A stretch of 64,000 nucleotides of DNA from the NCBI GenBank assembly GCA_964486215.1, contig CAZALI010000001.1, positions 12,837 through 76,836 of the forward strand. The letters run 5' to 3'. Below the pieces are notes generated by a model that worked only from the letters and a program-made list of their open reading frames with translations, did not search any database and was not told the DNA's origin. This document shows positions 42,420 to 63,913 of the stretch, one piece after another (position 1 is the first letter of the stretch; the number at the start of each line of letters is the position of its first letter). Position numbers and translations under genes: made by a program. Source of the stretch: an uncultured Muribaculaceae bacterium (GTDB lineage Bacteria; Bacillota_I; Bacilli_A; RF39; UBA660).

Positions 42420-42481
42420 TTTTTGTTTATTACTAACTTTTAGTTAGTTTTTTTATTAATTATGTTATAATATATGTAGTT

Positions 42482-42568
42482 GCTTTCGTGGCGGAATTGG
42501 TAGACGCGGTGGACTCAAAATCCACTGGTAGCGATACTGTGCGGGTTCGAGTCCCGCCGAAAGCACCA
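42482..42568 (+). tRNA. tRNA-Leu (anticodon CAA), type II with a long variable arm and encoded CCA.
   Basis: Acceptor GCTTTCG/CGAAAGC. Anticodon stem GTGGA/TCCAC with loop CTCAAAA. T-arm GGGTTCGAGTCCCGC. Promoter TGTTATAAT at 42463-42471. Terminator at 42577-42603. Confidence 0.85.
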
Positions 42569-46619: not shown

Positions 46620-46937
46620 TATCTTTTTTTGTAAAATAATATGTAAAGTACTTAAAAGTTTTAAAATAGTATTGACCTTATTCTTATAAAATGTTTTAAT
46701 GTAAGTGTTAGTACACAAGTTTTAGTTATTAACATAATAATTTATAATGATATTAATTATTTATTATGATTGTTAATACGTGCTTATCTGCTTGTCTACT
46801 AGTAGTTACAAATAAAGGAAAATATTATGTGGTAAGTGGCTAACGTAATATGACTAAGAGTTAGCTTCCATTGAACCGGGGTTAATAATGGTTATCAGTC
46901 AATTATTAATCTGACAAAAGTAGAGTTATCTTTTTGA

Positions 46938-46969
46938 GAATAGTGAGGTCATTTAACTATTCTTTTTTT
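46938..46969 (+). terminator. Intrinsic terminator inside the 1-kb gene-free region.
   Basis: GAATAGT / ACTATTC hairpin followed by T7. Confidence 0.5.
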
Positions 46970-46986
46970 ATATAAAAATTTGCACT

Positions 46987-47019
46987 AAAAAAGGATATTC
47001 ATTCAAATATCCTTTTTTT
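46987..47019. terminator. Bidirectional terminator.
   Basis: AAGGATAT / ATATCCTT hairpin flanked by A6 and T7. Confidence 0.5.
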
Positions 47020-47565
47020 CAATAAAGTTAAATAACGTTTCAAGAAACTTTTGATATTCAAATAATATTATAAATATTATTATAAATAACTAGGTAACTT
47101 GATAAATTAAATAACCGAGTTTCCCATTCACTTTATAACATTTGTATTTGGTATTATCAGTACCAAACGCGTGTTACCTTATCTTCGGGGAGTTTTCTTT
47201 CTCTTACTAAGTTACAGTATCTTGACTATAGTAAGTTATTGTTTAAAGTTTGTATTCCAAAACTTCCATAATTAAATGATAATTACTAATTTCTTCTTAT
47301 ATTTCTCGTATATATTAAATTAATAATACATATGGTACTACTATAAGCAAATACTCAGCAATTAATCAATTATTGAATAAATCAACAAAAGGTATAATTA
47401 CAATAGTATTAAACGAAATCGCAATCATGCCGATATCTTTTAGATCAAGATACATTATTAATTTAATATATAATTAGGTTATTGTCAATATTAATTTATG
47501 TTTTTAAAATGATTAGACACTTTATATGTAAAATGTGAAAAAATAGTAAAATTATGCAAAAAATA

Positions 47566-47593
47566 TTGTTAAATTAAATTTTCATGTTATAAT
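47566..47593 (+). promoter_or_regulatory. Sigma-A type promoter with an extended -10 element.
   Basis: TTGTTA, 16-nt spacer, TGTTATAAT. Confidence 0.5.
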
Positions 47594-47658
47594 TTTAATA
47601 GACATAGTAGGAAAGGTGGCATTGAAAATAGCAATATATAATTAAAATAGGTGGTTTG

Positions 47659-48351
47659 ATGAAGAATGAAGTAGAAGTTGATGCAAAAAAAGTATATAAG
47701 AAAAAGATGTTTGTAAAATTAGTTACAATTATCTTCTTAGCTTTACTTATATTACTTTCAATTATTTATTTATTTTTATATATTGTCTATGATGGTGGTA
47801 GGTTTACTATTAGTTTAGATAGGAATTTATCCAATAGAAAAAATGTCTATCTGTCGGAAGATGGTAAATTTGAAAATAAAAGATTCAAATTATCAGCTAA
47901 GACAATAGATTATATGGATAATATTTCTAAGGACTGGTTACCTGAGAATATCGATAAAGGTACTGGCAGCCATAATGGTAATAACTATATTGCTTATAGT
48001 TTCTATTTAGTAAATGCTGGTCATGAGACTGTCCATTATTGGTATGAGATAGATATTGACGATACCATAAAGAGAGTTGATGATGCTATTAGAATTATGA
48101 TAATTCAAAATGGCAAAAGAACAGTATATGCTAAAAGGAATCGTACTACTAAAAAGCCTGAGCCAGATACAGTGGCCTTTCGATCTAAGTCAGTTGTGGC
48201 TTTAAAGCAACGCAAGAAATTTAAACCGAAGAAGAAGGATCGATATACTATTGTCATATGGCTCGAGGGCAATGATCCAGAGTGCAAAAATGATTTAATT
48301 GGTGGAGAAATCAAGATGCATATGGACTTTACAGAAGAGCATATCAAATAA
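47659..48351 (+). CDS. Membrane-anchored protein of unknown function, the first gene of the TasA/SipW-like locus. An alternative TTG start lies at 47656.
   Basis: N-terminal TM segment VKLVTIIFLALLILLSIIYLFLYIV. Basic C-terminal region with locally raised GC content. Confidence 0.45.
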   Translation: MKNEVEVDAKKVYKKKMFVKLVTIIFLALLILLSIIYLFLYIVYDGGRFTISLDRNLSNRKNVYLSEDGKFENKRFKLSAKTIDYMDNISKDWLPENIDKGTGSHNGNNYIAYSFYLVNAGHETVHYWYEIDIDDTIKRVDDAIRIMIIQNGKRTVYAKRNRTTKKPEPDTVAFRSKSVVALKQRKKFKPKKKDRYTIVIWLEGNDPECKNDLIGGEIKMHMDFTEEHIK

Positions 48352-48369
48352 AAGAGGAGGAAAAGAGAT

Positions 48370-49404
48370 ATGGATAAGAAAACTCGTAATTACGAGAAAA
48401 AGAGAAAAAGAAAAATATTTTTATCAATTTTGATGATCTTGTTCGTAGGTATTATTTTAACTGCTAGTACTTACGCATGGTTCACAGCAAACCAAACTGT
48501 AACTGTTAATACTATTGATGTTAACGTAGCAGCTCAAAATGGTTTACTAATATCAACTGATGCTGATTCTTGGAAGACTGTTATTACTAATGAGGATATC
48601 ATAAATACTACTACTAGTGCATCTTCAAAATATAGCACTAATGAAAATATGATTCCATTTGGTACAGGTAGTCAAATTACACCAGTTTCTACTGTTGGTG
48701 AAATTGGTAGTGCTGGAAAACTAGCATTCTTTGCTGGTACACTTTCTAATAATGCCACTACTGATGCTTTAGAGTTAACTGCTAGTGCAGTAACTGAGGC
48801 AAAAGGAACTACTGGTGCTATGGTAGCTTTCGATTTATTCTTTAAAGTTACTGAAGAGTCACAAGTTTATTTAACTCCATCATCTAGCGTTATTAGTGCT
48901 GACCAAGACGATAGAGGATTAAAAAATGCTGCTCGTGTAGGTTGGTTAAGAGAAGGTAATGGTGATTTGAACCAAACTCTAGCTACATGGCAAGGATATC
49001 ATGCTACTAGTACTACAGATGGTGTAGCTAACCCAGCTAATAACTTAATTATTTGGGAACCTAATAGTGAAACTCATACTGCTGCTGGTACTGATAATGC
49101 AAGAAACTATGGTATTACTGATACTACACCAACTGCATTAACTTATGTTGGAGTAAAGGCAGCTATTACTAATGCTGTTCCAGTTGGTAGCCAAGATACT
49201 AACTATTTCGGTAGTGTAAAAGGATTATTTACTACAACTAATTCTACTGGAGTACCTGCTGGTACTAGATGGTTTAAATTAGCACCTGGTGTTACTAAAG
49301 TTAGATTCTATCTATGGATCGAAGGTCAAGACGTTGACTGTGAGAATGCAGCTTCAGGAGCTTCAATTTCTTACAACATGCAGTTCAGTTTATTGAACAC
49401 ATAG
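48370..49404 (+). CDS. TasA/camelysin-family protein with a SipW-cognate signal peptide.
   Basis: Basic N-terminus KKRKRK, a hydrophobic stretch, then STYAWFTANQ, which matches the GT(Y/W)A(F/W)F(S/T)D SipW-cognate class motif. 344 aa, T/A/G-rich. Terminator at 49418-49445. Confidence 0.55.
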   Translation: MDKKTRNYEKKRKRKIFLSILMILFVGIILTASTYAWFTANQTVTVNTIDVNVAAQNGLLISTDADSWKTVITNEDIINTTTSASSKYSTNENMIPFGTGSQITPVSTVGEIGSAGKLAFFAGTLSNNATTDALELTASAVTEAKGTTGAMVAFDLFFKVTEESQVYLTPSSSVISADQDDRGLKNAARVGWLREGNGDLNQTLATWQGYHATSTTDGVANPANNLIIWEPNSETHTAAGTDNARNYGITDTTPTALTYVGVKAAITNAVPVGSQDTNYFGSVKGLFTTTNSTGVPAGTRWFKLAPGVTKVRFYLWIEGQDVDCENAASGASISYNMQFSLLNT

Positions 49405-49459
49405 TTAGTTGGTTATGAAAAGGTCTTCCTTGAAGACCTTTTATTCTTAGAGGTGACAT

Positions 49460-49621
49460 ATGGATAAAGTAAATATTGAAGCATTAAATAGATTGAATAA
49501 TGAAGAGCTTTTATCATTGTATGATAGTATTAATGATCATATAAAATTTTTGAATGAAAATATAATTAAAGCTGAAGAGAAGAAAGAGGAAGAAGAGAGT
49601 AACGAGTCAAATGGAGAATGA
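49460..49621 (+). CDS. Small (53-aa) coiled-coil ORF, not in the supplied track. It overlaps the start of the next gene by 11 nt.
   Basis: RBS AGAGGTGA followed by ATG 49460. Translation MDKVNIEALNRLNNEELLSLYDSINDHIKFLNENIIKAEEKKEEEESNESNGE. Confidence 0.25.
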   Translation: MDKVNIEALNRLNNEELLSLYDSINDHIKFLNENIIKAEEKKEEEESNESNGE

Positions 49622-51269
49622 TGATAAGGTATTTATATTAAAAGAGATTGATATAGATAAAGAACATTTATCTTCTTTTCCTATGGAAACAGATTCTGGT
49701 ACTAAGAAAATAAAAGAAGAATTCCATAAAAAAGCTATTCAAGATAGAAATGCCTATGTTGATATGCAAATTAGGAAATTTACTGAGTATCGGAATGATG
49801 TTTTTAAAATGCTTAAAGCTAGAGCTCTTAGTATATTTCCAAATAATAGTATAAATGCATATGAAAACATTAATAATCACTTAGCTTTATTGCAAGATGC
49901 TGTAGTGGATACTAATAAATATGTTGATAACTACTATAAACTTGGATTCTCTTATCTAATAGAAGATATTGATGATAATGCTTCATTATTATTACTTAAT
50001 AAACACCTAAAAACATTTATTTCTAAATTTAATGAAATGGGTATAGAACTAAAAAAAGAAGATTTTAATTATACTATGTTTACGGCAAACTATATGAAAG
50101 AATTTTTAGATTCTTTATCTATGAATGATAATGATTTCTCTATGAAGATGAGGACTACTTTTGATTCTATATATTGGGAATGTCCTACTATTATTTATCA
50201 AATTAAGTTAAATTTACTTTATATTTTAGATAAATATAAGAAAGAATTAGACAAGTATTTAGCTGATAAAAATGCTAAATTATTAAATAATTTAGGCTGT
50301 GATAGGAATACTATTTTAGATGAGTATCTAAAGAAGAGATTAGAAGCAGGAGTTACTTTTGCGAGAGATGAATATAAGAATTTAGAAGTATTTTTGAATG
50401 GATCTAAGAATATAGAAGATTATTTACCTAGTAGTGAAATAAGAAGCAAAAATTATAATACTTATTGTAATGGTAATTTTGATGATTTAACTCCTGAAGA
50501 TAAGAATAAGTTTGATTTTGCTATGGCAGATTTACATAATACTTTAGTTGTTTTAAAGAAGTATTATACTTATGAACCTATTGTTAAGGACTTATTAAAG
50601 AAATATAAAGAAAAAGATAAAGTTAAGACTGAATTTGCTAATAACAATAAAGAAATAGATAAAGAAGATAAGAAGAGATTAGCTATTAATAAAGAATTTG
50701 CTAGAGCTAATGGAGAAGGATTCTTAGCTAAATATAATTCTGATAAGATTAAGAATGCTAAAGTTAAGATGAATGATGAAATTAGTAAGATTAAACAACT
50801 TTATCTTAAGAAATTTGGTTATGAAATTAGTATTAATTTAGATAAATATATAAAAGAATCTTCTACTTTGTATGATTTATTTATGGCATGTACTTCATCA
50901 TTTAATTATTTAAGTAATCAATTAAAGACTATTTATAAAGATGAGGAAGATTTTAATATTGAAAAAGAAGTTAATAATTTCTATAGATTTATCTTTAATC
51001 CTAGTAATGTATTCTTAAGGAAGAGTACTTGCTTTAGTGATTCTAAGATTGAAACTATTGTGAGTGATAAGTATCGTTTGTTGGGATTAAATATCAGTGA
51101 TAGTGATGTTAGTAAAGCATCTATTGATAGTACTATGGAAACCGTTGCTTATATCAATTTGATTCAAAACATTAATAAAGGAAGATTGTCTTTAGAAAAC
51201 ATTGCATTCATCTGCAATGTCAATAAAATAGAAGAATTAAAACCTGAAAAAGAAGCAGAAATGTTATAG
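49611..51269 (+). CDS. Hypothetical 552-aa protein, predicted cytoplasmic, with no recognised domain.
   Basis: K/E/D-rich ORF. Terminator GACCAC/GTGGTC at 51268-51293. Confidence 0.5.
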   Translation: MENDDKVFILKEIDIDKEHLSSFPMETDSGTKKIKEEFHKKAIQDRNAYVDMQIRKFTEYRNDVFKMLKARALSIFPNNSINAYENINNHLALLQDAVVDTNKYVDNYYKLGFSYLIEDIDDNASLLLLNKHLKTFISKFNEMGIELKKEDFNYTMFTANYMKEFLDSLSMNDNDFSMKMRTTFDSIYWECPTIIYQIKLNLLYILDKYKKELDKYLADKNAKLLNNLGCDRNTILDEYLKKRLEAGVTFARDEYKNLEVFLNGSKNIEDYLPSSEIRSKNYNTYCNGNFDDLTPEDKNKFDFAMADLHNTLVVLKKYYTYEPIVKDLLKKYKEKDKVKTEFANNNKEIDKEDKKRLAINKEFARANGEGFLAKYNSDKIKNAKVKMNDEISKIKQLYLKKFGYEISINLDKYIKESSTLYDLFMACTSSFNYLSNQLKTIYKDEEDFNIEKEVNNFYRFIFNPSNVFLRKSTCFSDSKIETIVSDKYRLLGLNISDSDVSKASIDSTMETVAYINLIQNINKGRLSLENIAFICNVNKIEELKPEKEAEML

Positions 51270-51358
51270 ACCACAAAAGTGGTCTTTTTTTTATGAATTT
51301 TTATTGGTTATTTACTTGTATTATGGTATAATGTTAATAGAATAATTGGAGTGTGCAT

Positions 51359-52618
51359 ATGAAGAGTGTGAAGAAAATTTTAAAGTATATAGCGTATGCA
51401 TTTTTATCATTTTTGATATTACTATGCGTATATACTTTTGTAGTAACAGATATTTTAAAGAAAGACCATGTAAATGTGTTTGGATATACATATTTTGTGG
51501 TAGCTAGCGGTTCTATGTCAGGTACTATTGAAGTTAATGATATTATCTTTGTTAAGCTTACTAAGAATGTCAAAGTAGATGATATTATTTCTTATAAAAA
51601 TAGTTCTGGAGAAATAATAACTCACCGTATTGTTGATAAGAGTGGTAATAGACTTATTACTAAAGGTGATGCCAATAATAGTCAAGATGATCCAATAAGT
51701 AAAAATGATGTACTTGGCAAGATTATTTGGATATTATCACCTAAAGTAATACTTGAATTTATCGCAGTATGCTTAATTGTATTTATTGGACTTGCTCTTA
51801 TTAATTTTGATAGGATATTTAAACGATATGTTGTTAAGAATGATAATACAGAGACAAATGATTTTGATAGAGAAGTTTTACCACAAGAAGTATTCTCTAG
51901 TCCAAAAGATAGAAAAGATTATAAACATAGTGGTTTAACTGTTACTATTCCATTGAAAGAGATAGATAATATCCGTAAGATACAGGATGAAGAGAAACAA
52001 GAAGATGAAGATGGAGTAGAGATATTAACAGAAGAAGAGGTATTAGATTTAGATAGTAATTCTATTGTTACTATCAGTAATACACAGAAAGAGAAAGAAA
52101 AAGAAATAGTTGATTTAGTTACTAATTTACTTAGAGTTAAGAATGATGAGTTAGCAACTTCTAGAATTAATAAGAAATGGTTACTTAAATATCAATTTAT
52201 TTATAAAATATCTAATATCATATTACTTGGTGATACTAAGAGTTTATTTGAATCTGTTGAACATCCTTCGTTTAAGGAAGTATATGATTATGACTTAGAG
52301 AAGATAGGCTTATATGAGAATTTACGAAATAAAATCTATGAAATGCCTATATATGTTTTCTTAAAAATATTATTTATAGCTATTTTATATAATGATGATG
52401 CTTTCTTTGACGGAGTATTCAAGATTATGAAATATAAAATTATGATTGATAAGAATAATCATTTTAGAACTATAAAGAATGATAATTATTCAAGAAGACA
52501 ATTAAAAGGATTAATTACATTTATGGAAAAGATTTCTAAACAATATGATAATAAGCATGTATTTGAATTAGATAAGATAGAGAGAATGACTAAGATTAAA
52601 AATTACGTTAACGATTAG
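51359..52618 (+). CDS. SipW-type (archaeal/eukaryotic-type) signal peptidase I fused to a ~270-aa C-terminal extension.
   Basis: N-terminal TM segment, then VVASGSMSGTIEVNDIIFVKL (Ser motif SGSM), ITHRIVDK (His) and ITKGDANNSQDDP (GDxN...D). A second TM segment (KIIWILSPKVILEFIAVCLIVFIGLALINF) is followed by a long additional domain. Promoter TGGTATAAT at about 51323-51331. Confidence 0.6.
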   Translation: MKSVKKILKYIAYAFLSFLILLCVYTFVVTDILKKDHVNVFGYTYFVVASGSMSGTIEVNDIIFVKLTKNVKVDDIISYKNSSGEIITHRIVDKSGNRLITKGDANNSQDDPISKNDVLGKIIWILSPKVILEFIAVCLIVFIGLALINFDRIFKRYVVKNDNTETNDFDREVLPQEVFSSPKDRKDYKHSGLTVTIPLKEIDNIRKIQDEEKQEDEDGVEILTEEEVLDLDSNSIVTISNTQKEKEKEIVDLVTNLLRVKNDELATSRINKKWLLKYQFIYKISNIILLGDTKSLFESVEHPSFKEVYDYDLEKIGLYENLRNKIYEMPIYVFLKILFIAILYNDDAFFDGVFKIMKYKIMIDKNNHFRTIKNDNYSRRQLKGLITFMEKISKQYDNKHVFELDKIERMTKIKNYVND

Positions 52619-52627
52619 GAGAAGAAT

Positions 52628-55600
52628 ATGAAACTTACTAAAAGAAAACTTACACATATAATATTTTCATTGTTCATGTTAATGATACTTTCTTTTAGTA
52701 TTGTTTCTTTTTTTTCTAGAAGTACTTTAAGTGATATTAATTATGTTAAATGGGATGGAAAAGAAGTAGCTACTTCTTTTGCTGGAGGTAATGGTACCAA
52801 AGAGAATCCATATAAAATTAATAATGGCGGACAATTAATGTACTTTAAGAAGATGGTAGAAGAAGAGAATAATTTTCTTGATAAATACTATGTTCTTGGA
52901 GCAAACATTGATTTAGATGATCATGAAATTACTCCTATTGGTACTGATACTAAGTACTTTAGTGGCTCTTTAGATGGAAAAGGATATACTATTACTAATA
53001 TTAATATCAAAGAAGGCAAAGAAGATAATCAAATAAACTATTATGGTTTATTTAATAAAATTAAAGGTACTATTAATAATCTTAATATAGATGAAATTAC
53101 TATTAATCCTGAAAGTGAAGATCCTGTTATTATAGGATCTTTAGCTGGTAAAATAGAAGAAGAATCTAGTATTAAGAATATTTCTATTCATAAGAGTAAT
53201 ATTTATTTAACTAATACTACTAATGATAAGTCTAATAATATAGCTTTATTTAGTGGAATAATAGAAGAGAAGAGTACTATTACTAATATTAGTGTATTTG
53301 GTAAATTTTATTCTCCTTATAGTGATAATGTTTCTATTATTAGTAATAAATTAGATAGTAATATTAAAAACGCTATTATGAAAGTTGAATATGAAGATGG
53401 TATTAATGATTTAGCTACTTTTGGTAATATAGGTGATGAAGTAGAAACTACTAATATATTTAATTTTATTAATAAAGATAGAATTGTTATTAAGAATGAA
53501 ACATATACTGCTAGTGAAGTAGTTAATGTATTTAATGATGAAATACTTGATAATTACTATTGGGATTATGATGAAGATTTTTCTATTTATGTAAGAGATA
53601 ATAAAATAGATAATACTCCTAAAGTTAGAAGTTTTAGTTTTACTCCTAGTGGTACTATAGCATTACATGATAGTGGAGTATCTACTGCGGATAAGACTGT
53701 TTATATTAATGATTTAACTAGTGATTATAACTACTACATGGGTCTTAATTATACTACTACTAGTAATGGAAATGTTCCTACTGGATCTAGTAATAATACT
53801 TATACTGATAGTAATTTAGTAGCAGTATATATGGCTTATAGAGGAGAAAGCATTAACGATGATGGAAAAATTGGATATGTATCTCTTAATGAACAAATAT
53901 CTGATTTTATATATTATAAGTATTATGTAATAGAAAATGGTTATATAACTATTCCTCTAATAGATAATCCATATGCTGATAGACCTAATGATATGGCTTT
54001 TAATGGATGGATAACTGATTATCCTAATGCAGTTGTTAGTTATGATGCTGATACTTATACTAGATATGTTAAGATACCGGCAACAACTGGTCCTATATCA
54101 ATTACTATGTATGCTACATGGACAGAAGCTACTGTTGTTAACGCTAGTGTTAGTAGTAATAATTTAAGTACTACTGGACTTAAACCTATTAGTATGCAAC
54201 CAATTATTACTAGGACTCCTAATTATAATGGTTATACTTTCCCAACTCTATATACAAGAGGTTCTGTAACTAGTGAAGCTAATAGAAATGGAGCTGTTCC
54301 TTATCCTGCTGGAGCAGTTGATGATAGAGGAAATAGTTTAAGTAACTCTATGTGTGAACCTATTGTTACTGGTAGTGGCTGGAATAGGAGATATAGTTCA
54401 CAAACATGTTATTACTATATGCAAGCTGATACTACTAATATTGATCCAAATGAGTCTTATTATCAAATAGGTAATAATGGTAGCATGACTTCTTATACAT
54501 TACCTACACCTACTGGATATGATTATGAAAGAGTTATAGATGTTGGTGATAGTGTAGCTGGTTTCTATAAGAGACATACGGAGGCTGGTAGTTTAGTTGG
54601 TTATTATAATAATAGAGGAGTTCAATATACTTCTGGTAGTTGTAGTAGTAATTGTGAGTATTATGAGTTAGTACAGTTTGATGAGAATAATGTCATGCAA
54701 GAGACGGATTCAGAAACACTTTATTATTACTTAGTTACTCGTGATACTAATATTGCCTTTTTAAATAGTAATATTCAAGGATTTACTAATAGTGTTCCAG
54801 TTACGGTTACAGGTATTAATAATGGTGTTGATCATAGTAACTATGAGATTCAAGTTAATACGCGTAGTATAAGAGCTGGAGCTGATTTAAGAGTTGAATG
54901 GGCTCTTGTCAATAGAAACAGTTATTCTACGAATACTAGTGGTCCATCTGATAGTAATACTAATAATATTTATGGTGAGTATCATAACTTGAAAATTGGT
55001 AGAGGAATAGAAATTGAAACTACAACAACGACAGAATGGCAATATATTGATGGTAGATATCAACAAGTTCAAGTTACAAGAAAATATTTGACTGCTACTT
55101 CTGTTGTTGGAGGAAGCTCTAGTGCTGCAGGTGGTAGTGGTAGTCCTGAAAAATATAATCTAATCGTAGAATCAGGCTATTATAATGTTTTGAGTGCTGT
55201 TAGTACAACTAGTTCTTCATCTACTTATTATACAAATGCTGTTGCGACATATGGTTGTGATTTTGATAGAGTAAATAATGCTGATAACTCTAAACTAGGA
55301 GTTTATTATACAGCTGCTTCTAGTTGGGGCGGTAGCATTTATAGTTCTTCTAGTTCTACTGATACAGAGTTATTCTCAACACAAATTGTTAAGAGTGGAA
55401 CATTTGGTGAAGTTGAGAGTGAAGCTGCATCTGGTATATATGCTGGAGGATTAAATGGTGGTACTATTTATGCTCCTGCTAGACTTATTATTGAAGGTGG
55501 AGATTTATTTAATGTTAATGGTGGACCATTAATTAGTTCTAATAGAAAAACTAAGAATATGATTTATATTAATATGAAAGGCGGAAATGCTGACTTTATA

Positions 55601-58600
55601 TTTGGTGGTGCTGCCTTATCACAAACTTATGGTAATCGTATTATCAATGTTACTGGTGGACAAGTTAATTACTCTGTATTTGGAGGATCTAATGGTGTCG
55701 AAGGTGGTAACGGTGATGGTACTTTGGATGGAGATTCTTTCGTATATGTTGGTGGTAATGCCAAGATTGGAGACGACTCTATTACTGATACTAAGTGGGG
55801 AGTTGAATCAGGCTCTGTATTTGGTATAGGTAATGGTAATTCTTCATATGATACAATTGGTTCTACTAATAATTCTAATGTTATTATAGCGGGTTCTGCT
55901 ACTATAAAGACTAATGTCTATGGTGGTGGTAACTATGGTGCTGTTGGTGTTAAAGGAAATACATCTACAACTACTACTAATGTTAAGATAATCGGTGGAG
56001 ATGTTAAAGGTAGTGTCTATGGTGGAGGTAATAATGCTGGATCTGGTACTTCTTCATATACTTCTACAGTAAACATTACTATGGATGGTGGTACTGTAGA
56101 AAAGAATGTCTTTGGTGGAAGTAGAACTAAAGGTATTATTTATGGTTCTACTAACGTTAATATAAATCAAGGTGTTGTTGAAAAAGACGTATACGGTGGC
56201 GGTGAAGGTGGTTATGAAGATAGTAATACTCCTGGTACATACGTTGCTCGTGACGTTAATGTAGTTATTGGTGATACTAATACAACTACTAGTAATTTAA
56301 CTATTAAAGGTAGTGTCTATGGTGGTAGTGCTTATGGTTCTGTAAATGGAAGTTCTAATAATGCATCTGCTACAGCTACATATAAGACAAATGTTACAGT
56401 CAATGGTGGAAAAATTGAAACCAATGTCTATGGTGGAGGTAAAGGTGATTCTACTCATACTCCAAAAGAATTTGGTGATGTTACTGTTACTATCGAAGGC
56501 GGTAGTATTGGTGACGTATATGGCGGTAATGATCAAGCTGGTTCTCCACAAAGAGGCGATGTTGTTAACTTAAATGGTGGAACAATTGCCAATGGATTTG
56601 GTGGAGGTAATAATACTGGGCAAACAACTACTAATATTAATCTAGCTGGTACAACTGTTACTGGTAACTTATATGGTGGTTCTAATAATGGTGGTATTGT
56701 TACTACTTCTAATGTTCATGTTACAAGTGGTTCTGTTACTAACGTATATGGTGGTAATAACTTAAATGGTTCAACGACAACAACTAATGTCATTATTGAT
56801 GGTGGTACTTTCTCAGGTGATGTTTATGGTGGAGGTAACCAAGCTAATTCTAGTACTTCAAATGTCACAATAAATGCTAGTACAAATCACAATGTCTATG
56901 GTGGAGGTAACCAAGCAGGTGTTACTACTCAAACTAATGTAAATATAAATGCTGGTACAATAGTTGATGTATTTGGTGGATCTAATAGTTCTGGAGAAAT
57001 CAATAATACTCATGTTATTGTATCTGGTACTGGTGCCAAGAACATTCAAAATGTCTATGGTGGTAATAATTTAGGTGGTACTACTGATAATGCTATATCT
57101 GTTATTGAAGTAAGCAGTGGTACAATTGGAAACATCTATGGTGGAGGTAATAAAGTTGGACTTGATACTTCTAATGTAACAGTTACAGGTGGAACAATTA
57201 CTTCTGTATATGGTGGTTCTAATACTAGCGGAGATCTTAATGAATCTAATGTAACTATTGGATCTACTACTAGTCAAGTTACGGTACAAGATGTCTATGG
57301 TGGTAATAACTTAGGTGGTGTTACAGATGATGCCAATATCGTTGTTACAAATGCTACTGTAAATAACTTATACGGTGGAGGTAATCAAGCTGCCGTTGGT
57401 TCTACACATGTAGAGGTAGTTGATAGTACTATTCAGAATATCTATGGTGGAGGTAACCAAGCTGGTGTTACTGGTAATACATATTTGGATGTTGATAACT
57501 CTACTGTTTCTACTAACATTTATGGTGGAGGTAATCAAGGAGCAGTAGGTGGAAATACTGAAGTTTATATTACTGATGGTACAATTGGTGGTAGTTGTTA
57601 TGCCGGTGGTAATGGTTCTACAGCTATCGTAAGTGGTAATACTCTTATTACTGTTGATGGTGATACTGTTGTTGGTAGTGCATCATCTACTGGAACAGAG
57701 GGTAGCGTCTTCGGTGGTGGTAATGCTGCTGCTACTGGTAGTTCATCTACTAATAATAGTGTTGCTACGGTAAATATTGTTGGCGGACATATTTATGGTA
57801 ACGTATATGGTGGTGCTAATACTTCAGTTGTTTATGGCGAAACTCATACAAATATTGGTACTAATGCTGTAAATGTATCTGGTTTAGACGAAGCTGATTT
57901 AATAATTGAAGGAACTGTCTTCGGTGGTGGTGAAGCTAATGCTTCTGGCAGTGATAGTTACGACTTCTCATTCATTTCTGTCACAAGAGGAATTGATGTT
58001 AATATAGATGGTTTGAATTATCTTACTCATGGAAATAGATTTGAACTTAATGGATCTATCTTTGGTTCAGGTAATGCTTCATCTTCTGCTGGTACTAGTG
58101 AAGTTTATATTAGAAATCTAGGTACGAGAACTAATCCTAGTTCAAATGTATCAATACAGAGAGCAGATAAAGTCGTGATTGATAATAGTGTTATTGAACT
58201 TTCTGGTACTGTTGATACTACAAATGATTATTCAAATATTAAATATTCATTGAACAGAATTGAAGACTTTATTATTAAAAATAATACGGTACTTCTATTA
58301 AAAGAAAATGCCAACCTTCTACAATCATTTAGATCTATGGTTGGTACTGATGGTAACGAAGTATTAGCAACTGTTAATATAAATGATGATACACAAACAG
58401 TTACTAAGAATGTTGACAATAGACTTTATATGTTAGCTGATAAGAACTTGAATGTTGCTACTAACCAGGATGCTACTGCTTATGGTGAAGTTAAAGGTAT
58501 GACATTCCTTGGAATGTATACTATGGGTACTACTGGTAGTAGGAGGTATGGTGTCTATAGTGATACATTTGATTATGGTTCAGCATCTGATGCTGGTGAT

Positions 58601-60718
58601 ATGATCATTGGTGGTACAAGTGTTAAAGGTTCACATCTCGTAAATCATGATATAACTAAAGATGGTTTCTATTCTAACTATCTAGATGAAGAGAATAACT
58701 ATTCTGAAGTTAGAGTAGCTTACGTAGAACCTCAACCACCAGCTTCAAACTTCTATATATGGTCTATTGGTGAAGAGACAATTAGTTATGAATTTACAAT
58801 GACGGCTTCTAAGTATGGTTCATTAGGTACATATACACTTTCTATGTCAGAATTTGCTGATGGTAATACAATCTTCAATGTCAGTGGATTTAATACTGAA
58901 GGTTTAGCAAGTGGTGTATCATTAATTGATTCTGATACTGTACCTAAGATTGCTCATACACAAGCAGAAGCTAATAGTGTCTTTGGTTTATCAATGAAAG
59001 CTGAGACACGTGAGTGGACTAGTTATGGTACAACAAAACTATTAAGTCGTGATAATGGTGATACGACTGGTACAGATAGTTATAAAACAGACTCTCAGTC
59101 TATAGCACCAACAATGATGTTCTATTTCTACCATGCTAAGAATATTGCTCTTACAGCAGAACTTGGAACAGCAGTATTAACACTACAAGCTATGGTACCA
59201 ATAAATGAGATAGAGTATGATATCCAGTTAATTACTATTACGATTAACTTAGAGGCACAAGAATACGATGACGAAGATGCTTACGATGCTTCAATATCTT
59301 ACGATAAAAAGTATGAGATGCCTTCAGCTACACCAGTTAATATTACTAATAGGAGCCAATTCACAGCATATTATTCTATGATTGCTATGCCTGAAAGCTT
59401 TAGTGCTTTCTATGGTAGAGATGGAGACTATTATCATGCTTTAGTTACAGATGCAGCTTTACCTGTTGGAACTGAGATTACAATGATTGATAATAGTATA
59501 GAGGGTCATCCTGAAGAATATTATTTAACAATAGATCAGGCTCGGTATAATGCATCGACAGCTCAACTTAGTGCTGATAGTGAAATTAGTTATAAACTAT
59601 CGGAATTCATAAAGATGGATAGTACTAGTACTACTAATAAATATAGTGACGTTCAAATGAATCAAGTTTACTTTGACGATGATTATAATCTAGTTATGGA
59701 AGAGTTCTTATTCATCTTTGACTTTAAGAACACGACAGTTTCTGATGGAGTATTAAATAAATATATGTTATTTGAATTACGTAATGGTGAGGATAGAACA
59801 ATGTATCACGTTGTTACTCCACGTCGACAATTTATGTATTACAATACATATGCAGCATCTAACTCAGTACTTGTTGGTTCAATTACTCCTGAACGTTACT
59901 TGTATCAAGATATTGATAGTACAACGCCAATTTCAGCAGAAGTTGACTACGACGAAACTTCTGGACGTGAGTCAATTATTGATACTAACTATGAGAGTAG
60001 TTCTATGGGACTTAACTTAGCTATTCTAGACCACAGTGGTAACCAAGTAAGTTCTAGTATGCTTATTGGTACATCAGTTACTATTAATAATACTGAGTAC
60101 TATGCTGATAGCGATGGTGTATTTAGAATAAAACTAGCTGGAAAAGTATCTAATATTAATGGTACGATGACATTGAAAACAGATAAGAGCCTGCCAGTAG
60201 GTGAATATACATTCAGATTTACTTTGTTTGCTTCTAACGATGGTCTTCATAATTCTGATCCAGATAGAGCAACAGTATATAATAGAACAGTAACGGTTGT
60301 TGGTAGTAATAACTCTATTGTAGTTACTGGTGATGATAAAAACAAAGTAGTAGACGGAGTAACTTCACTTAATGAATTAGGAGCTAAATACAATAATTAT
60401 AGTATTAAGTATGTATCAGCTTTGTCTAATCCTAACTTTAGAGTTTCTCTATATAAACGTGATATTACTGATAGCGTTACTACTAATTATACTGAAGTAC
60501 CATTTAATTCATTGTTTACTGATACATTAACTGATGCGACTGGTGGAACTGCTTATGAAAAAATTGTTCCTACAGGTACTTCACCGTTTAATGTTAGATA
60601 TAATTTTGCTGATAATTTAACTTCTGGAACTTATAAAATAGTATTTAAATTATATGATGGTAATCAATTAGTAGATAGTGATAATGAATTTATTATTGTT
60701 AAGAAGAGAACTCCTTAA
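52628..60718 (+). CDS. Giant (2696-aa) secreted or cell-surface protein with a central β-solenoid-like tandem repeat region.
   Basis: RBS AGGAGAAG. N-terminal signal anchor. The central region contains more than 30 repeats of about 25 aa with the motif x(V/I)(Y/F)GG(G/S)N followed by N(V/I)x(V/I)xxG(T/S)I. Confidence 0.8.
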   Translation: MKLTKRKLTHIIFSLFMLMILSFSIVSFFSRSTLSDINYVKWDGKEVATSFAGGNGTKENPYKINNGGQLMYFKKMVEEENNFLDKYYVLGANIDLDDHEITPIGTDTKYFSGSLDGKGYTITNINIKEGKEDNQINYYGLFNKIKGTINNLNIDEITINPESEDPVIIGSLAGKIEEESSIKNISIHKSNIYLTNTTNDKSNNIALFSGIIEEKSTITNISVFGKFYSPYSDNVSIISNKLDSNIKNAIMKVEYEDGINDLATFGNIGDEVETTNIFNFINKDRIVIKNETYTASEVVNVFNDEILDNYYWDYDEDFSIYVRDNKIDNTPKVRSFSFTPSGTIALHDSGVSTADKTVYINDLTSDYNYYMGLNYTTTSNGNVPTGSSNNTYTDSNLVAVYMAYRGESINDDGKIGYVSLNEQISDFIYYKYYVIENGYITIPLIDNPYADRPNDMAFNGWITDYPNAVVSYDADTYTRYVKIPATTGPISITMYATWTEATVVNASVSSNNLSTTGLKPISMQPIITRTPNYNGYTFPTLYTRGSVTSEANRNGAVPYPAGAVDDRGNSLSNSMCEPIVTGSGWNRRYSSQTCYYYMQADTTNIDPNESYYQIGNNGSMTSYTLPTPTGYDYERVIDVGDSVAGFYKRHTEAGSLVGYYNNRGVQYTSGSCSSNCEYYELVQFDENNVMQETDSETLYYYLVTRDTNIAFLNSNIQGFTNSVPVTVTGINNGVDHSNYEIQVNTRSIRAGADLRVEWALVNRNSYSTNTSGPSDSNTNNIYGEYHNLKIGRGIEIETTTTTEWQYIDGRYQQVQVTRKYLTATSVVGGSSSAAGGSGSPEKYNLIVESGYYNVLSAVSTTSSSSTYYTNAVATYGCDFDRVNNADNSKLGVYYTAASSWGGSIYSSSSSTDTELFSTQIVKSGTFGEVESEAASGIYAGGLNGGTIYAPARLIIEGGDLFNVNGGPLISSNRKTKNMIYINMKGGNADFIFGGAALSQTYGNRIINVTGGQVNYSVFGGSNGVEGGNGDGTLDGDSFVYVGGNAKIGDDSITDTKWGVESGSVFGIGNGNSSYDTIGSTNNSNVIIAGSATIKTNVYGGGNYGAVGVKGNTSTTTTNVKIIGGDVKGSVYGGGNNAGSGTSSYTSTVNITMDGGTVEKNVFGGSRTKGIIYGSTNVNINQGVVEKDVYGGGEGGYEDSNTPGTYVARDVNVVIGDTNTTTSNLTIKGSVYGGSAYGSVNGSSNNASATATYKTNVTVNGGKIETNVYGGGKGDSTHTPKEFGDVTVTIEGGSIGDVYGGNDQAGSPQRGDVVNLNGGTIANGFGGGNNTGQTTTNINLAGTTVTGNLYGGSNNGGIVTTSNVHVTSGSVTNVYGGNNLNGSTTTTNVIIDGGTFSGDVYGGGNQANSSTSNVTINASTNHNVYGGGNQAGVTTQTNVNINAGTIVDVFGGSNSSGEINNTHVIVSGTGAKNIQNVYGGNNLGGTTDNAISVIEVSSGTIGNIYGGGNKVGLDTSNVTVTGGTITSVYGGSNTSGDLNESNVTIGSTTSQVTVQDVYGGNNLGGVTDDANIVVTNATVNNLYGGGNQAAVGSTHVEVVDSTIQNIYGGGNQAGVTGNTYLDVDNSTVSTNIYGGGNQGAVGGNTEVYITDGTIGGSCYAGGNGSTAIVSGNTLITVDGDTVVGSASSTGTEGSVFGGGNAAATGSSSTNNSVATVNIVGGHIYGNVYGGANTSVVYGETHTNIGTNAVNVSGLDEADLIIEGTVFGGGEANASGSDSYDFSFISVTRGIDVNIDGLNYLTHGNRFELNGSIFGSGNASSSAGTSEVYIRNLGTRTNPSSNVSIQRADKVVIDNSVIELSGTVDTTNDYSNIKYSLNRIEDFIIKNNTVLLLKENANLLQSFRSMVGTDGNEVLATVNINDDTQTVTKNVDNRLYMLADKNLNVATNQDATAYGEVKGMTFLGMYTMGTTGSRRYGVYSDTFDYGSASDAGDMIIGGTSVKGSHLVNHDITKDGFYSNYLDEENNYSEVRVAYVEPQPPASNFYIWSIGEETISYEFTMTASKYGSLGTYTLSMSEFADGNTIFNVSGFNTEGLASGVSLIDSDTVPKIAHTQAEANSVFGLSMKAETREWTSYGTTKLLSRDNGDTTGTDSYKTDSQSIAPTMMFYFYHAKNIALTAELGTAVLTLQAMVPINEIEYDIQLITITINLEAQEYDDEDAYDASISYDKKYEMPSATPVNITNRSQFTAYYSMIAMPESFSAFYGRDGDYYHALVTDAALPVGTEITMIDNSIEGHPEEYYLTIDQARYNASTAQLSADSEISYKLSEFIKMDSTSTTNKYSDVQMNQVYFDDDYNLVMEEFLFIFDFKNTTVSDGVLNKYMLFELRNGEDRTMYHVVTPRRQFMYYNTYAASNSVLVGSITPERYLYQDIDSTTPISAEVDYDETSGRESIIDTNYESSSMGLNLAILDHSGNQVSSSMLIGTSVTINNTEYYADSDGVFRIKLAGKVSNINGTMTLKTDKSLPVGEYTFRFTLFASNDGLHNSDPDRATVYNRTVTVVGSNNSIVVTGDDKNKVVDGVTSLNELGAKYNNYSIKYVSALSNPNFRVSLYKRDITDSVTTNYTEVPFNSLFTDTLTDATGGTAYEKIVPTGTSPFNVRYNFADNLTSGTYKIVFKLYDGNQLVDSDNEFIIVKKRTP
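55400..58100 (+). repeat. Tandem degenerate repeats (period ~72-84 nt) encoding the YGG(G/S)N β-solenoid units.
   Basis: Near-identical blocks (a/g)tctatggtgg(a/t)(g/a)gtaa recur at about 56018, 56318, 56427, 56895, 57052, 57135, 57293, 57441 and 57521. Confidence 0.7.
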
Positions 60719-60770
60719 TTAATAATTGAAATTAAATTTTTAATATGATAAAATGAGAGTGGTGATTTAA

Positions 60771-61448
60771 ATGATAAAAAGAATTTTTGGGGTAATATGG
60801 GATATATTAGAAATTTTAATAATAATTTATGTTATATTCATAACAGCTTGTATATTATTTAGAAACGATTATGGATTTACACAGTTTGGTGATTATACTT
60901 TAGCTAGTCTTGGTAAAAATGATGCTAAATATATCAAGAATACTAATAATGGCGATCTATTAATAGTTAAGAAGAGTAAAAATATAGCTGTTGGTGATTA
61001 TATTTATTACTATGCTGTTATTGATGAAAGCTATGTAATTAGAACAGGTGTTGTACAAGGAGTTACTAAAGATGATTATAATTCTTTATACAATATAAAG
61101 ACTAAGATTTCTAATGATAAGACTGTTAAGATAAGCGTTAATCATAAACGTGTTCTTGGCAAAGCTGCTAATAATTATGCTAAGTTAGGAGATATTCTTA
61201 AATTCTTAGAGACAAGACTTGGTTTCTTAGTATTTGTACTTCTTCCTATTATGCTTGTATTTGTATATCAAATATATATATTCGTAGTTTTATTAAATTA
61301 TGAAAAGAAGGAAACTTTGAATAAAATTATTAGTACTAATAATAAAGAAGCTTTAAATAAACCAGAAGTAAAAGAAGAAAAACCTGTAGAAAAAGAAGTT
61401 CCAAAAGAAGAAGAGAAAAAAGATGATGAAGATATAGAAGTTTTATAA
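60771..61448 (+). CDS. Bitopic membrane protein, possibly a catalytically degenerate SipW-like paralogue.
   Basis: Architecture is TM segment, β-domain, TM segment, acidic tail, as in the SipW-like gene. Short local similarity FGDYT...NGDLLIVKK compared with FGYTY...NDIIFVKL, but no SGSM Ser or HR His. Confidence 0.35.
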   Translation: MIKRIFGVIWDILEILIIIYVIFITACILFRNDYGFTQFGDYTLASLGKNDAKYIKNTNNGDLLIVKKSKNIAVGDYIYYYAVIDESYVIRTGVVQGVTKDDYNSLYNIKTKISNDKTVKISVNHKRVLGKAANNYAKLGDILKFLETRLGFLVFVLLPIMLVFVYQIYIFVVLLNYEKKETLNKIISTNNKEALNKPEVKEEKPVEKEVPKEEEKKDDEDIEVL

Positions 61449-62179: not shown

Positions 62180-63913
62180 ATGAAGAAGTATTTGTTGATT
62201 GCTTTGATTAGTTTTTTACTTATACCAACACAAGTTTTTGCTGTTGATAAAGCTAGTAAAGTTATTAGTGGTTTAAGTGATAGTAACTTAGTTAATGATG
62301 GAACTAGTGATAATAATAAACGTTATGTAGGAATGAATCCTAATAACTATGTTTTATTTAATGGAGAGACTCCTGGAGTTGCTACTGAAAAATATAGAAT
62401 TTATTTAACAAATACTTTGTTGCCAAAGGATGATGAACATGATGGTTATCCTACTGAAGCAGATTGTACGTCTGATGTTAATAGTTATGTAGGGCATGTT
62501 ATGGATTATGGTGCTTCATATACTTGTACTCTAAATACTGATACTAGTGAGTATGAATTAAGAACGACAGGCTATTTAAGTAATGATTATATAAATACAA
62601 ATGGTGGTTATGATGATACTAGTTTATCTTCTTGCCAAGGTTTTATAAGTAATGTTGGAATGCCTGATACTGCGGCTTGTACGGAAAATCACATTATGTT
62701 CAAAGGCTGGAGAATAGTTGGAGTATTTAATGTTAATGGTGTTAAGAGAGTTAAACTTGTAAGAAACGAATCTATTGGTCTTTATTCTTGGGATAGTACT
62801 CCTAGTGATGTTAATGCTGGATTTGGTAGAAATGAATGGAGTGAATCAGGAATACAGAGATTACTTAATCCTGGATATACAGGAATAGCTAATAATAGTT
62901 TATATTGGGATAGTGGAAGTGGTTTCTGTTATACCAATGCAGGAGCATCTGCTAATCCTTGTGATTTTGCTGATTCTGGCTTGAAAGACAGCGGCAAAGC
63001 ATTTATAGATGACGCTTTATGGCATACTAGTTTTGTTAATACTGCTGCTAGTTCTGTTGCTTTATATGAAGCTGAAAAGAGTGGTAATACTACTATTACT
63101 CCTCCAACAGATTCACCAGCAACTGATGGTATAACAAGACATGCTACTTGGACTGGTAAAGTAGGACTTCTATCTGCTAGTGATTTAGCTTTAGCTAGTC
63201 TTAATTGTAATGCTAGTTTAATAGATAGTGGTGTTTCTGGATGCGCTAATAACTGGTTATTTGATACAACTAAGCCTACACTTACAATGACTTCTAGTGT
63301 TAAAGGAGTTTCTAAAGTACTTATTAATGATACTACTAATATATTTACTACTACTGATGCATCTAATCCTGGTGAAGTTTACCCAGCTGTATTCTTATCA
63401 GATGATACATATATTATCAGTGGTACTGGTAGTGTTAATGATCCATTTATTTTAGGTAAAGGTAAATCAGTAGATGTAGATCTTATCTTAGGTAATAATT
63501 ATAGTTTAAGTAATTATATAACTGATATTAGTGATTTCTCTTCACTTAACTGGGAAATTGATGATCCAACTGTTGTAGGAGTAAGTGGTGCTTCTCTAAC
63601 ACCTAAGAAAGTTGGAGTTACTAAGATGAGTACATTTACTAATGGTTTATATTATGTAGTAAATGTTAACGTAAGAAAAGTACAACCTAGAATAGATCCA
63701 GATGCATCTTCTAATACTAGTGGTTCTTCTAGTAGTAGTGTTAGTTCTGGAACAAGCAATTCATCTAATGAACTAGTAAATCCAAAGACTAGTTATTTAA
63801 ATAAAATTAATAATGTTAAGAATAATTTAAGAGGAGATATAATAACATTTGTAATATTCTTAGTAGTATCTGCATTCTCTTTATTCGCAGCATTTAAATA
63901 TAAGAAAAATTAA
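62180..63913 (+). CDS. Secreted surface protein with a Big_2 (bacterial Ig-like) domain and a C-terminal NPKTS sorting-signal-like tail.
   Basis: Sec signal peptide LLIPTQVFA|VD. Big_2-like segment LILGNNYSLSNYITDISDFSSLNWEIDDPTVVGVSGASLTPKKVGVT. C-terminal tail NPKTS...IITFVIFLVVSAFSLFAAFKYKKN. Terminator at 63913-63936. Confidence 0.5.
   Translation: MKKYLLIALISFLLIPTQVFAVDKASKVISGLSDSNLVNDGTSDNNKRYVGMNPNNYVLFNGETPGVATEKYRIYLTNTLLPKDDEHDGYPTEADCTSDVNSYVGHVMDYGASYTCTLNTDTSEYELRTTGYLSNDYINTNGGYDDTSLSSCQGFISNVGMPDTAACTENHIMFKGWRIVGVFNVNGVKRVKLVRNESIGLYSWDSTPSDVNAGFGRNEWSESGIQRLLNPGYTGIANNSLYWDSGSGFCYTNAGASANPCDFADSGLKDSGKAFIDDALWHTSFVNTAASSVALYEAEKSGNTTITPPTDSPATDGITRHATWTGKVGLLSASDLALASLNCNASLIDSGVSGCANNWLFDTTKPTLTMTSSVKGVSKVLINDTTNIFTTTDASNPGEVYPAVFLSDDTYIISGTGSVNDPFILGKGKSVDVDLILGNNYSLSNYITDISDFSSLNWEIDDPTVVGVSGASLTPKKVGVTKMSTFTNGLYYVVNVNVRKVQPRIDPDASSNTSGSSSSSVSSGTSNSSNELVNPKTSYLNKINNVKNNLRGDIITFVIFLVVSAFSLFAAFKYKKN

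Follow-up and report, generated by a model that had tools for sequence, protein, structure and literature searches.

A giant repeat protein with a predicted beta-solenoid rod, encoded in a conserved cassette with a SipW-type signal peptidase in an uncultured bacterium

Introduction

What kind of protein is specified by an 8.1-kb open reading frame (ORF) whose central part is built from short glycine-rich repeats, and what might such a protein do for the cell that makes it? The question is raised by a 64,000-nucleotide stretch of DNA from an uncultured bacterium (assembly GCA_964486215.1, contig CAZALI010000001.1, positions 12,837 to 76,836), analysed here along its full length and called the window. 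The ORF, referred to below as the giant gene, lies in a region of 25-36% guanine plus cytosine (GC), and its 2,696-residue product is on record as MBQ6477470.1, 'MAG: hypothetical protein [Bacilli bacterium]'. An earlier note, made from the sequence alone, had located the ORF and proposed that it encodes a beta-solenoid-like fibre of possibly variable repeat number and no C-terminal anchor; the exact coordinates and length were recovered in the present work. We describe the repeats, the predicted fold, the constancy of length among relatives and the conserved set of neighbouring genes, and we weigh what they suggest about function.

Gut Firmicutes often have very large surface proteins built of repeats. 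Both giant beta-helical surface proteins and assemblies serviced by SipW are known; the large family to which the present protein belongs is wholly unannotated. SipW is a signal peptidase dedicated to polymerising matrix proteins encoded alongside it, namely TapA and TasA in Bacillus subtilis and BsaA in Clostridium perfringens, and in a C. perfringens sipW mutant BsaA is held in the cell (PMC7395162). In the literature on SipW and on RFN20 we found no description of the giant protein or of its gene cassette, the only precedents being the SipW systems of Bacillus and Clostridium. The lineages that carry the gene are uncultured and have reduced genomes, and little is known of how they build their surfaces or attach. 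In a genome of that size class an 8-kb gene takes up about 1.5% of the DNA, and here it has stayed intact, with its length constant from genus to genus and with five or six partner genes beside it.

Results

The giant protein contains a block of about 30 repeat units, spaced 13-54 residues apart (median 26), with the consensus V-[YF]-G-G-[GSN]-N-x-x-G-x-x-x-T-N-V-x-I-x-G-G-T-I-x-x-x. Units of 24-28 residues filling the central ~900 residues had been described in the earlier note, and this is what the analysis returned; the unit quoted there, NVYGGGNQAGVTTQTNVNINAGTIVDVFGGSNSSGEINNTHVIVSG, corresponds to residues 1422-1467. The block is real, and only the count of "more than 30" was slightly generous, about 30 being a fair figure: strict [YF][GA]G motifs number 27 (residues 938-1765) and anchors found with a looser pattern 31 (residues 937-1811). 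The pattern lies far above chance, because the repeat region holds 27 strict motifs as against 3.0 ± 1.6, and at most 10, in 2,000 composition-preserving shuffles. Gly (20%), Asn (12%) and Thr (12%) stand out in its composition. The regions flanking the block are rich in Thr, Ser and Asn and without repeats, again in keeping with the earlier description. So, too, is the recurrence of 17-20-mers at the DNA level, several of which occur up to three times; the longest exact repeat in the gene measures 22 nt. Tandem Repeats Finder (TRF) detected no tandem DNA array in the giant gene, and identity between entire repeat copies is no more than 60-87%.

An AlphaFold2 model of residues 750-1940, computed from an alignment of 50 sequences, is all-beta, with a mean predicted local distance difference test (pLDDT) score of 90.8, a predicted template modelling score of 0.74 and no segment below 50 pLDDT. 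DSSP assigns near-unbroken short beta-strands and almost no helix to model residues ~48-1186, equivalent to protein residues ~797-1935. Short-strand coils stacked as a continuous rod, the feature of the beta-helix/beta-solenoid class, are present in this predicted model, which thus supports the reading of residues ~797-1935 as a beta-solenoid rod. By estimate, from roughly 30-40 coils at the usual rise of ~4.8 Å, the rod would measure about 15-20 nm. The structure prediction suggested in the earlier note supports the fold that the note had proposed, and the best neighbours of the model in the PDB are beta-helical as well, though non-significant. In a Foldseek search the best E value was 0.41. 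Most entries on the list, including the six best, are beta-helical: IgA1 protease, MpAFP, VacA, EspP, Hap, EtpA, EspC, a gut-metagenome beta-helix and a tapirin appear among the matches. As far as the model can tell, the solenoid has no close solved relative.

Searches by sequence placed the giant protein in no catalogued family. Apart from a spurious 14-bit match to YfjS_YafY, Pfam yielded nothing at E <= 1, NCBIfam yielded no family at E <= 0.1, and a 26-sequence profile of the giant protein matched no PDB sequence; Pfam and NCBIfam scans of three full-length orthologues, six N-terminal fragments and three distant relatives gave nothing usable. The Pfam search of the repeat region, another check put forward in the earlier note, matched no well-characterised family. 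The note's statement that the classic LPXTG, SLH and choline-binding vocabularies are missing likewise stood up to Pfam, NCBIfam and motif scans, which found neither SLH nor choline-binding nor other catalogued wall-binding repeats. The same applies to RTX repeats (GG.G.D absent by regular expression, no Pfam match, and a period of 24-26 residues, not 9) and to Pmp/autotransporter repeats (no GGA[ILV], only six scattered FxxN and no Pfam match). One sub-threshold lead came from orthologue P0004, which scores 24.7 bits against PF05342 (M26 IgA1-protease N-terminal or GLUG-type; cut-off 27.7); PF05342 and Glug are absent from the window protein and from five other orthologues.

Two functions that a beta-helix might call to mind can be considered at this point. 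A right-handed beta-helix is classically associated with polysaccharide lyases and glycosidases, GH55 and a beta-helix from capybara gut occur among the weak Foldseek matches, and the carriers live in gut and rumen; the giant protein might be a carbohydrate-active enzyme of pectate-lyase-like fold with dietary or host glycans as its substrates. We think this improbable, given that Pfam shows no match to Beta_helix, pectate lyase or any CAZy-type family, that all the structural matches are non-significant, and that nearly every invariant position in the solenoid holds a ladder residue (Gly, Asn, Ser, Tyr or Val), with no conserved acidic or basic catalytic cluster between residues 937 and 1760. 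Descent from a prophage tail fibre or tailspike is hardly credible. A Foldseek search of BFVD did return three matches to long viral beta-helical fibres at E <= 1e-3, but with template modelling (TM) scores of at most 0.24 and root-mean-square deviations of 11-55 Å, that is, a generic likeness between long beta-helical fibres. The gene and its partners are, moreover, chromosomal and syntenic across genera, their surroundings are of housekeeping type (nrdDG, aminoacyl-tRNA synthetases, PriA, PknB), and genes for phage structural proteins were not observed next to them. A phage origin was consequently rejected.

Homologues of the giant protein number 383, many of them full-length (2,600-3,000 residues) at 40-74% identity, and all are nameless metagenomic proteins. 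Judged by its long ORF, its strong ribosome-binding site and its sequence relatives, the giant gene is real and under selection. Species-representative genomes in which an orthologue occurs bear the labels uncultured Erysipelotrichaceae, Mycoplasma sp. CAG:877, uncultured Bacilli (Hadza gut), Bacillales Tb.RUG.212 and Bacilli HGM10852, and the samples came from human gut, Hadza gut and rumen. We take these genomes to belong to orders of the RFN20/RF39 type. Orders of that type are treated in PMC10868615. Conservation is lowest, with insertions and deletions, in the N-terminal third (residues 200-350, 500-650 and 800-850) and highest, essentially without gaps, in the solenoid and the last 760 residues.

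The earlier note had further suggested that the recurring DNA words permit slipped-strand or recombinational change in repeat number, in which case the gene could be a contingency locus encoding a phase- or antigen-variable adhesin. The exact repeats of 17-22 nt do recur; the lack of a TRF array and the 60-87% identity between copies speak against the idea, and so do the relatives. In 26 aligned orthologues at 40-75% identity the alignment is near gap-free across the repeat block, and among 120 orthologues the motif count ranges from 22 to 32, with a mode of 26-28. Length was examined in four clusters of >=90% identity, with 100-514 members each, of which up to 40 were read and 15 listed per cluster. 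The full-length members listed are all of 2833 residues in one cluster, all of 2703 in another, of 2619 with a single 2600 in the third, and of 2818 or 2819 in the fourth; strain variants differ by scattered substitutions only. On these data repeat number does not vary in this subfamily, for which the contingency adhesin is very improbable and largely refuted. A point in its favour comes from a different branch, relatives of ~6,800 residues that share the solenoid module only (P0415, P0454-P0458), where a single cluster of >=90% identity contains lengths of 6,609, 6,688, 6,697, 6,805 and 6,818 residues. Expansion of the module is thus possible in other proteins; this branch may reflect a change in repeat number or else imperfect assemblies.

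Size differences between orthologues of the giant protein are due to whole extra domains looped out from the rod, not to repeat number. An insert of ~115-129 residues follows window residue 1547 in 12 of the 26 orthologues (P0014, P0016 and P0077 among them), one of ~105-136 residues follows residue 1468 in three (P0010 among them), and one of ~320 residues follows residues 1108-1118 in two, P0071 and P0113; the window protein has none of them. By eye, the insert of ~120 residues (…TIKVKVVNASDENVDTWQVQLNLP…) has the look of a beta-sandwich of the carbohydrate-binding-module type, yet it has no Pfam match. A 577-residue protein encoded at 62180-63913, secreted, with a C-terminal transmembrane segment and no Pfam match, has an N-terminal part (…NNKRYVGMNPNNYVLFNGE…WRIVGVFNVNGVKRVKLV…) that by eye resembles the ~320-residue insert of P0071 and P0113.

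The solenoid module has a wider distribution than the giant protein itself. In a profile-free HMMER scan of the repeat block alone against 1.84 billion cluster representatives, 1,538 clusters (50% identity) matched at E <= 1e-3 and 434 at E <= 1e-30, in proteins of up to 7,555 residues. All ten distant relatives that were looked up lack an informative name, and all three that were scanned lack a Pfam match. Among the best 147 distant representatives about 80 share at least the first C-terminal segment (residues 1841-2200) and 68 share both C-terminal segments, with similar C-termini. A relative of 5,374 residues that has the solenoid module alone in common (locus L010) lies in another context and without a SipW cassette. 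That locus (1-33093) contains three giant genes in a row, for products of >3,815, 5,374 and 2,251 residues; the 2,251-residue protein carries Fn3_assoc, CHB_HEX_C and Peptidase_M26_N domains, and the first two genes are separated by a Gp49/HTH toxin-antitoxin-like pair.

Outside the rod, variability of the giant protein peaks in the N-terminal region, which holds two conserved islands, residues 42-124 (WDG…GNGT.ENPY) and 347-500. The C-terminal module is kept to the last residues (…Y-[IV]-I-[IV]-K), distant relatives included, and in the window protein it ends in …EFIIVKKRTP, without a hydrophobic tail. Neither LP.T[GAS] nor NP.T[GNS] occurs anywhere in the protein, and the sole Kyte-Doolittle window above 1.6 covers residues 7-31. 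A sortase is encoded in the window at 22536-23492, yet the giant protein has no sortase motif. The earlier note was thus right that there is no LPXTG or other C-terminal anchor; its corollary that retention must depend on a partner is half right, for it had missed the hydrophobic segment at residues 7-31, a candidate anchor. In a logo of 120 orthologues this hydrophobic region ends in a degenerate Y-S-L-[LF]-T-[GA], parallel to the Y-A-W-F-T-A of a secreted neighbour described below. The first 60 residues of five giant orthologues gave no match to TIGR04088, the SipW-cognate signal model, at E <= 10, and because the model is not reached we do not claim a canonical SipW signal. By its sequence, the segment may be a signal peptide that is cleaved off or, just as well, a signal-anchor.

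The earlier note had also missed the context of the giant gene, which is one member of a cassette conserved among uncultured gut Bacilli (47656-61448; Table 1) and composed of g231, g344, a small acidic ORF, g552, a dedicated signal peptidase of the SipW type, the giant gene itself and g225, the g numbers giving the lengths of the products. The set is kept in 11 further loci that were fetched (about eight distinct orthologues), including those whose giant proteins are only 35-42% identical to that of the window. In loci L001-L009 the same genes flank the giant gene and the outer flanks differ, with nrdDG in the window and L001, and VanY/PBP5/VanW in L003. In the distant loci L008, L011 and L012 (35-42% identity) the gene order is permuted, yet g231, g344, the giant gene and g552 are found together.

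Table 1. Coordinates of the giant gene, its parts and the other members of the cassette (window positions).
Feature	Coordinates	Strand	Description	Basis
g231	47656..48351	+	231 aa, N-terminal transmembrane segment	Adjoins giant gene in all cassette loci fetched
g344	48370..49404	+	344 aa, secreted beta-sandwich, SipW-type signal peptide (…LTASTYAWFTAN…)	TIGR04088 20-22.4 bits (cut-off 19)
Small acidic ORF	49460..49621	+	53 aa	Position kept: 42-83-aa gene at equivalent place elsewhere
g552	49611..51269	+	552 aa, K/E-rich	Adjoins giant gene in all cassette loci, 22-54% identity
Terminator-like hairpin	51268..51285	+	Hairpin followed by T-run	Consensus pattern match; 5 sites found, 3.7 expected
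Signal peptidase I	51353..52618	+	421 aa, SipW-type (archaeal/endoplasmic reticulum (ER)-type)	TIGR02228 64.6 bits (cut-off 51.85)
Shine-Dalgarno sequence	52617-52621	+	AGGAG, 6 nt 5' of giant-gene ATG	Read from sequence
Giant gene	52628..60718	+	2,696 aa	ORF with ATG start
Giant protein, aa 1-31	52628..52720	+	K/R-rich n-region and ~22-residue hydrophobic segment	Kyte-Doolittle; logo of 120 orthologues
Giant protein, N-terminal region, aa 32-796	52721..55015	+	Most variable part, with insertions and deletions	Conservation profile
Giant protein, rod, aa ~797-1935	55016..58432	+	All-beta, read as beta-solenoid	AlphaFold2 model, short strands throughout
Giant protein, repeat block, aa 937-1840	55436-58147	+	V-[YF]-G-G-[GSN]-N repeats	Repeat-unit analysis
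Giant protein, C-terminal module, aa 1936-2696	58433..60718	+	Includes stop codon	Conservation 0.42-0.72, essentially gap-free
g225	60771..61448	+	225 aa, catalytically dead SipW-domain paralogue	hhalign probability 94.5%, E 7.5e-8, 119 columns

The peptidase gene lies directly upstream of the giant gene in eight loci (about five distinct orthologues; L001-L007 and L009). In the window its stop codon is overlapped by the AGGAG of the giant gene, an arrangement consistent with translational coupling. The catalytic domain spans residues ~17-134 and is followed by a second transmembrane segment (~130-150); the Ser of S-G-S-M and the His of T-H-R are kept in six orthologues. Against the Bacillus SipW equivalog model NF046067 (189 positions) the protein scores 56.5 bits, below the cut-off of 190. 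A typical SipW has ~190 residues; here the second transmembrane segment is followed by a C-terminal extension of 270 residues (151-421; window 51803-52618) with no relatives in Pfam or the PDB. Orthologues are 46-71% identical over the full length, extension included, and a PDB sequence search with the peptidase found nothing. The g225 gene follows the giant gene immediately in L001, L003, L005-L007 and L009 and lies close by in L012; its product has the topology of the peptidase (a transmembrane segment, an ectodomain of ~110 residues, a transmembrane segment and a K/E-rich tail), with the catalytic Ser and His positions not conserved. BLASTP found nothing between the two proteins, their relationship being visible in profile-profile comparison only. 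A conserved pseudo-signal-peptidase within a secretion cassette is unusual.

In g344 the motif T-A-S-T-Y-A-W-F-T-A-N-K-T-V-T-V is conserved at >=90% at nearly all positions in 30 homologues, and Y35, W37, F38 and N41 are invariant. None of its 2,182 homologues is named. An AlphaFold2 model (pLDDT 79.1) consists of an N-terminal helix followed by beta strands. Pfam at E <= 10 gave no match, the sequence and a profile of the 30 homologues found nothing relevant among PDB sequences, and a Foldseek search of the PDB with the model gave a best, non-significant E of 0.067, TasA being outside the top 50; an identity as a TasA-like fold or camelysin (Peptidase_M73) was therefore dropped. The g231 protein is 44-75% identical across L001-L009, L011 and L012 (L001 and L002, like L003 and L004, have the same protein) and has no Pfam or NCBIfam match. 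It shares a C-terminal W-[IL]-E-G-x-D-x-[DE]-C-x-N with g344 (hhalign 68%, E 4.8e-5, 31 columns), and we propose it as a membrane-anchored minor partner. For g552, which by eye has no signal peptide or hydrophobic segment and has no Pfam, NCBIfam or PDB match, a role as a cytoplasmic component of the cassette is proposed. The small acidic ORF is weakly conserved in sequence, tblastn detecting it in L001 only. The hairpin that follows g552 may split the cassette into two transcription units. Overall, the cassette proteins beyond the peptidase domain are without match in Pfam, NCBIfam or the PDB, the signal peptide of g344, which passes TIGR04088, being apart.

Discussion

Starting from the gene, its repeats, predicted fold, fixed length and linkage, we infer that the giant protein is exported, cleaved by the cassette peptidase and assembled with g344 and g231, and that it is adhesive. 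A Sec-exported surface fibre or adhesin serviced by the SipW-type peptidase is the best reading of the locus, and one in which we place about as much trust as doubt. Its mechanism would parallel that of tapA-sipW-tasA of B. subtilis and sipW-bsaABC of C. perfringens. The protein would leave the cell through the general Sec pathway by virtue of a single N-terminal export signal (residues 1-31). Outside, residues ~797-1935 would fold into a rigid beta-solenoid rod, one unit of 24-26 residues per coil, setting the variable N-terminal region apart from the very conserved C-terminal module of 760 residues. By analogy with the SipW operons, the peptidase would free g344, and probably also the giant protein, from signal peptides; the Y-S-L-[LF]-T-[GA] of the latter is a degenerate echo of the Y-A-W-F-T-A of g344. 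The same analogy suggests that g344 and g231, related beta-sandwich proteins that are secreted or membrane-anchored, may assemble with the giant protein into a surface fibre or matrix, in which the giant protein would be a long rigid spacer or adhesive element.

Comparison with the SipW operons reveals both likenesses and differences. As in tapA-sipW-tasA and sipW-bsaABC(RSD), a signal peptidase I of the ER/archaeal type is encoded beside secreted clients, one client, g344, bears the SipW-cognate signal motif, and a related membrane-associated protein, g231, accompanies g344 as TapA accompanies TasA. On the other side, neither TasA/camelysin homology nor a TasA-like fold was detected for g344, and the peptidase falls far short of the Bacillus SipW equivalog. 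The cassette also adds the 2,696-residue solenoid protein, the dead paralogue, a 552-residue protein for which no export signal is predicted and the 270-residue extension of the peptidase; we know of no counterpart of these in the SipW operons of Bacillus or Clostridium.

Among adhesins, the model recalls Hap, EspP, IgA1 protease, VacA and the two-partner-secretion (TPS) protein EtpA, which are very long single-chain parallel beta-helix rods forming extended stalks at the surface and are top Foldseek neighbours, all at non-significant values (E >= 0.4, TM <= 0.2). In contrast to these Gram-negative adhesins and toxins, the giant protein has no beta-barrel translocator, TPS domain or Pfam autotransporter signature; its host is a monoderm member of the Bacillota, its signal is N-terminal and of the Sec type, and its repeats are V-Y-G-G-G-N units of 24-26 residues. 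The best local geometry is that of region IV of the Marinomonas primoryensis ice-binding adhesin (3p4g; target-normalised TM 0.41-0.46, probability up to 0.51), which likewise has glycine-rich turns and a regular solenoid inside a giant adhesin. The coil of 3p4g is Ca2+-dependent and has 19 residues with an xGTGND-type motif, whereas that of the giant protein is predicted to have 24-26, with no GGxGxD and no RTX Pfam match, at an identity of 15-16%. The tapirins of Caldicellulosiruptor (6n2b), beta-helical surface adhesins of a Gram-positive Firmicute, also figure in the Foldseek list; that match is very weak (E 9.4, TM 0.07-0.15), and tapirins are much smaller and lack a SipW cassette. By these comparisons of sequence and predicted structure, the giant protein belongs to none of the families considered.

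Several points weigh against a SipW-serviced fibre or adhesin. A relationship of g344 to TasA is not detected in sequence or in predicted fold, and for this reason a TasA-like donor-strand fibre is to be taken as an analogy only. The N-terminus of the giant protein stays below TIGR04088, and its hydrophobic stretch of ~22 residues fits an uncleaved signal-anchor equally well. No binding domain was found, and the role as an adhesin or S-layer-associated protein named in the earlier note is a plausible guess. Finally, a host-facing adhesin would not usually be of fixed length and free of any hypervariable region; these traits fit a structural element of the envelope at least as well. Such an element might be an S-layer-like stalk or spacer, held in the membrane by an uncleaved N-terminal anchor, with a rod of constant length that fixes a distance at the surface and a peptidase that serves g344 only. 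Invariant length in the strain-level clusters, the near absence of gaps across genera, variation that is low and evenly spread, the long N-terminal segment that fails TIGR04088 and the position of the gene among housekeeping genes would all be expected of it. However, S-layer, SLH and wall-binding domains were not detected, the rod inserts of ~105-320 residues in orthologues resemble the display of binding modules more than a pure ruler, and the overlap of the peptidase stop codon with the ribosome-binding site of the giant gene suggests that the giant protein is itself a client of the peptidase. We regard an envelope element of this kind, the main rival to the fibre, as possible, if rather doubtful.

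A bolder variant of the SipW-serviced fibre seems conceivable, that of a new, SipW-dependent surface appendage in which g344 would form the polymer once cleaved (possibly by donation of its invariant new N-terminal strand WFTANKTVTV), g231 the anchor, and g225, the cytoplasmic extension of the peptidase and g552 a platform for sorting and assembly, the giant protein being a distal rigid arm held by its C-terminal module. We consider it unlikely; if true, it would amount to new assembly machinery rather than another large adhesin.

Whichever role applies, what takes this system beyond the ordinary is that its length is constant, that its peptidase machinery is both fused and duplicated, and that annotation is wholly lacking across a lineage widespread in the human and ruminant gut. 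Its characterisation would name, and give a fold to, a large share of the 'dark matter' of gut metagenomes; it would also carry the principle of a dedicated SipW peptidase past fibres of the TasA and BsaA types, and offer protein engineers a natural beta-solenoid rod that is monodisperse and of defined length.

Other features of the window

Between nrdG and the cassette lies an ORF-free gap of 1 kb (46620-47655; 22.6% GC), three patches of which are 68-79% identical to the equivalent gap of L001. On its minus strand (47147-47243) the Rfam PGK RNA motif scores 42.9 bits, below the gathering threshold of 50.8 (E 0.001). By its sequence features the gap may be a regulatory leader or encode a small RNA. 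The remainder of the window is ordinary chromosome, with genes for SerRS, ProRS, MiaB, RseP, PriA, Fmt, RlmN, a PASTA kinase, RsgA, Tex and NrdDG. The PASTA-domain Ser/Thr kinase is encoded at 30877-32640; from its presence and that of the sortase, the organism probably keeps a peptidoglycan wall and sortase anchoring. A 438-residue protein (1139-2455) matches mTERF strongly (1.5e-48, three matched stretches), a family best known from organelles and for that reason of note in a bacterial chromosome. Upstream of nrdDG (38052-38954 and 42344-42565), an ORF6N-domain protein is encoded a few kb from two tRNA genes. The ORF6N domain is associated with phage antirepressors, and this area may be the remnant of a small mobile element.

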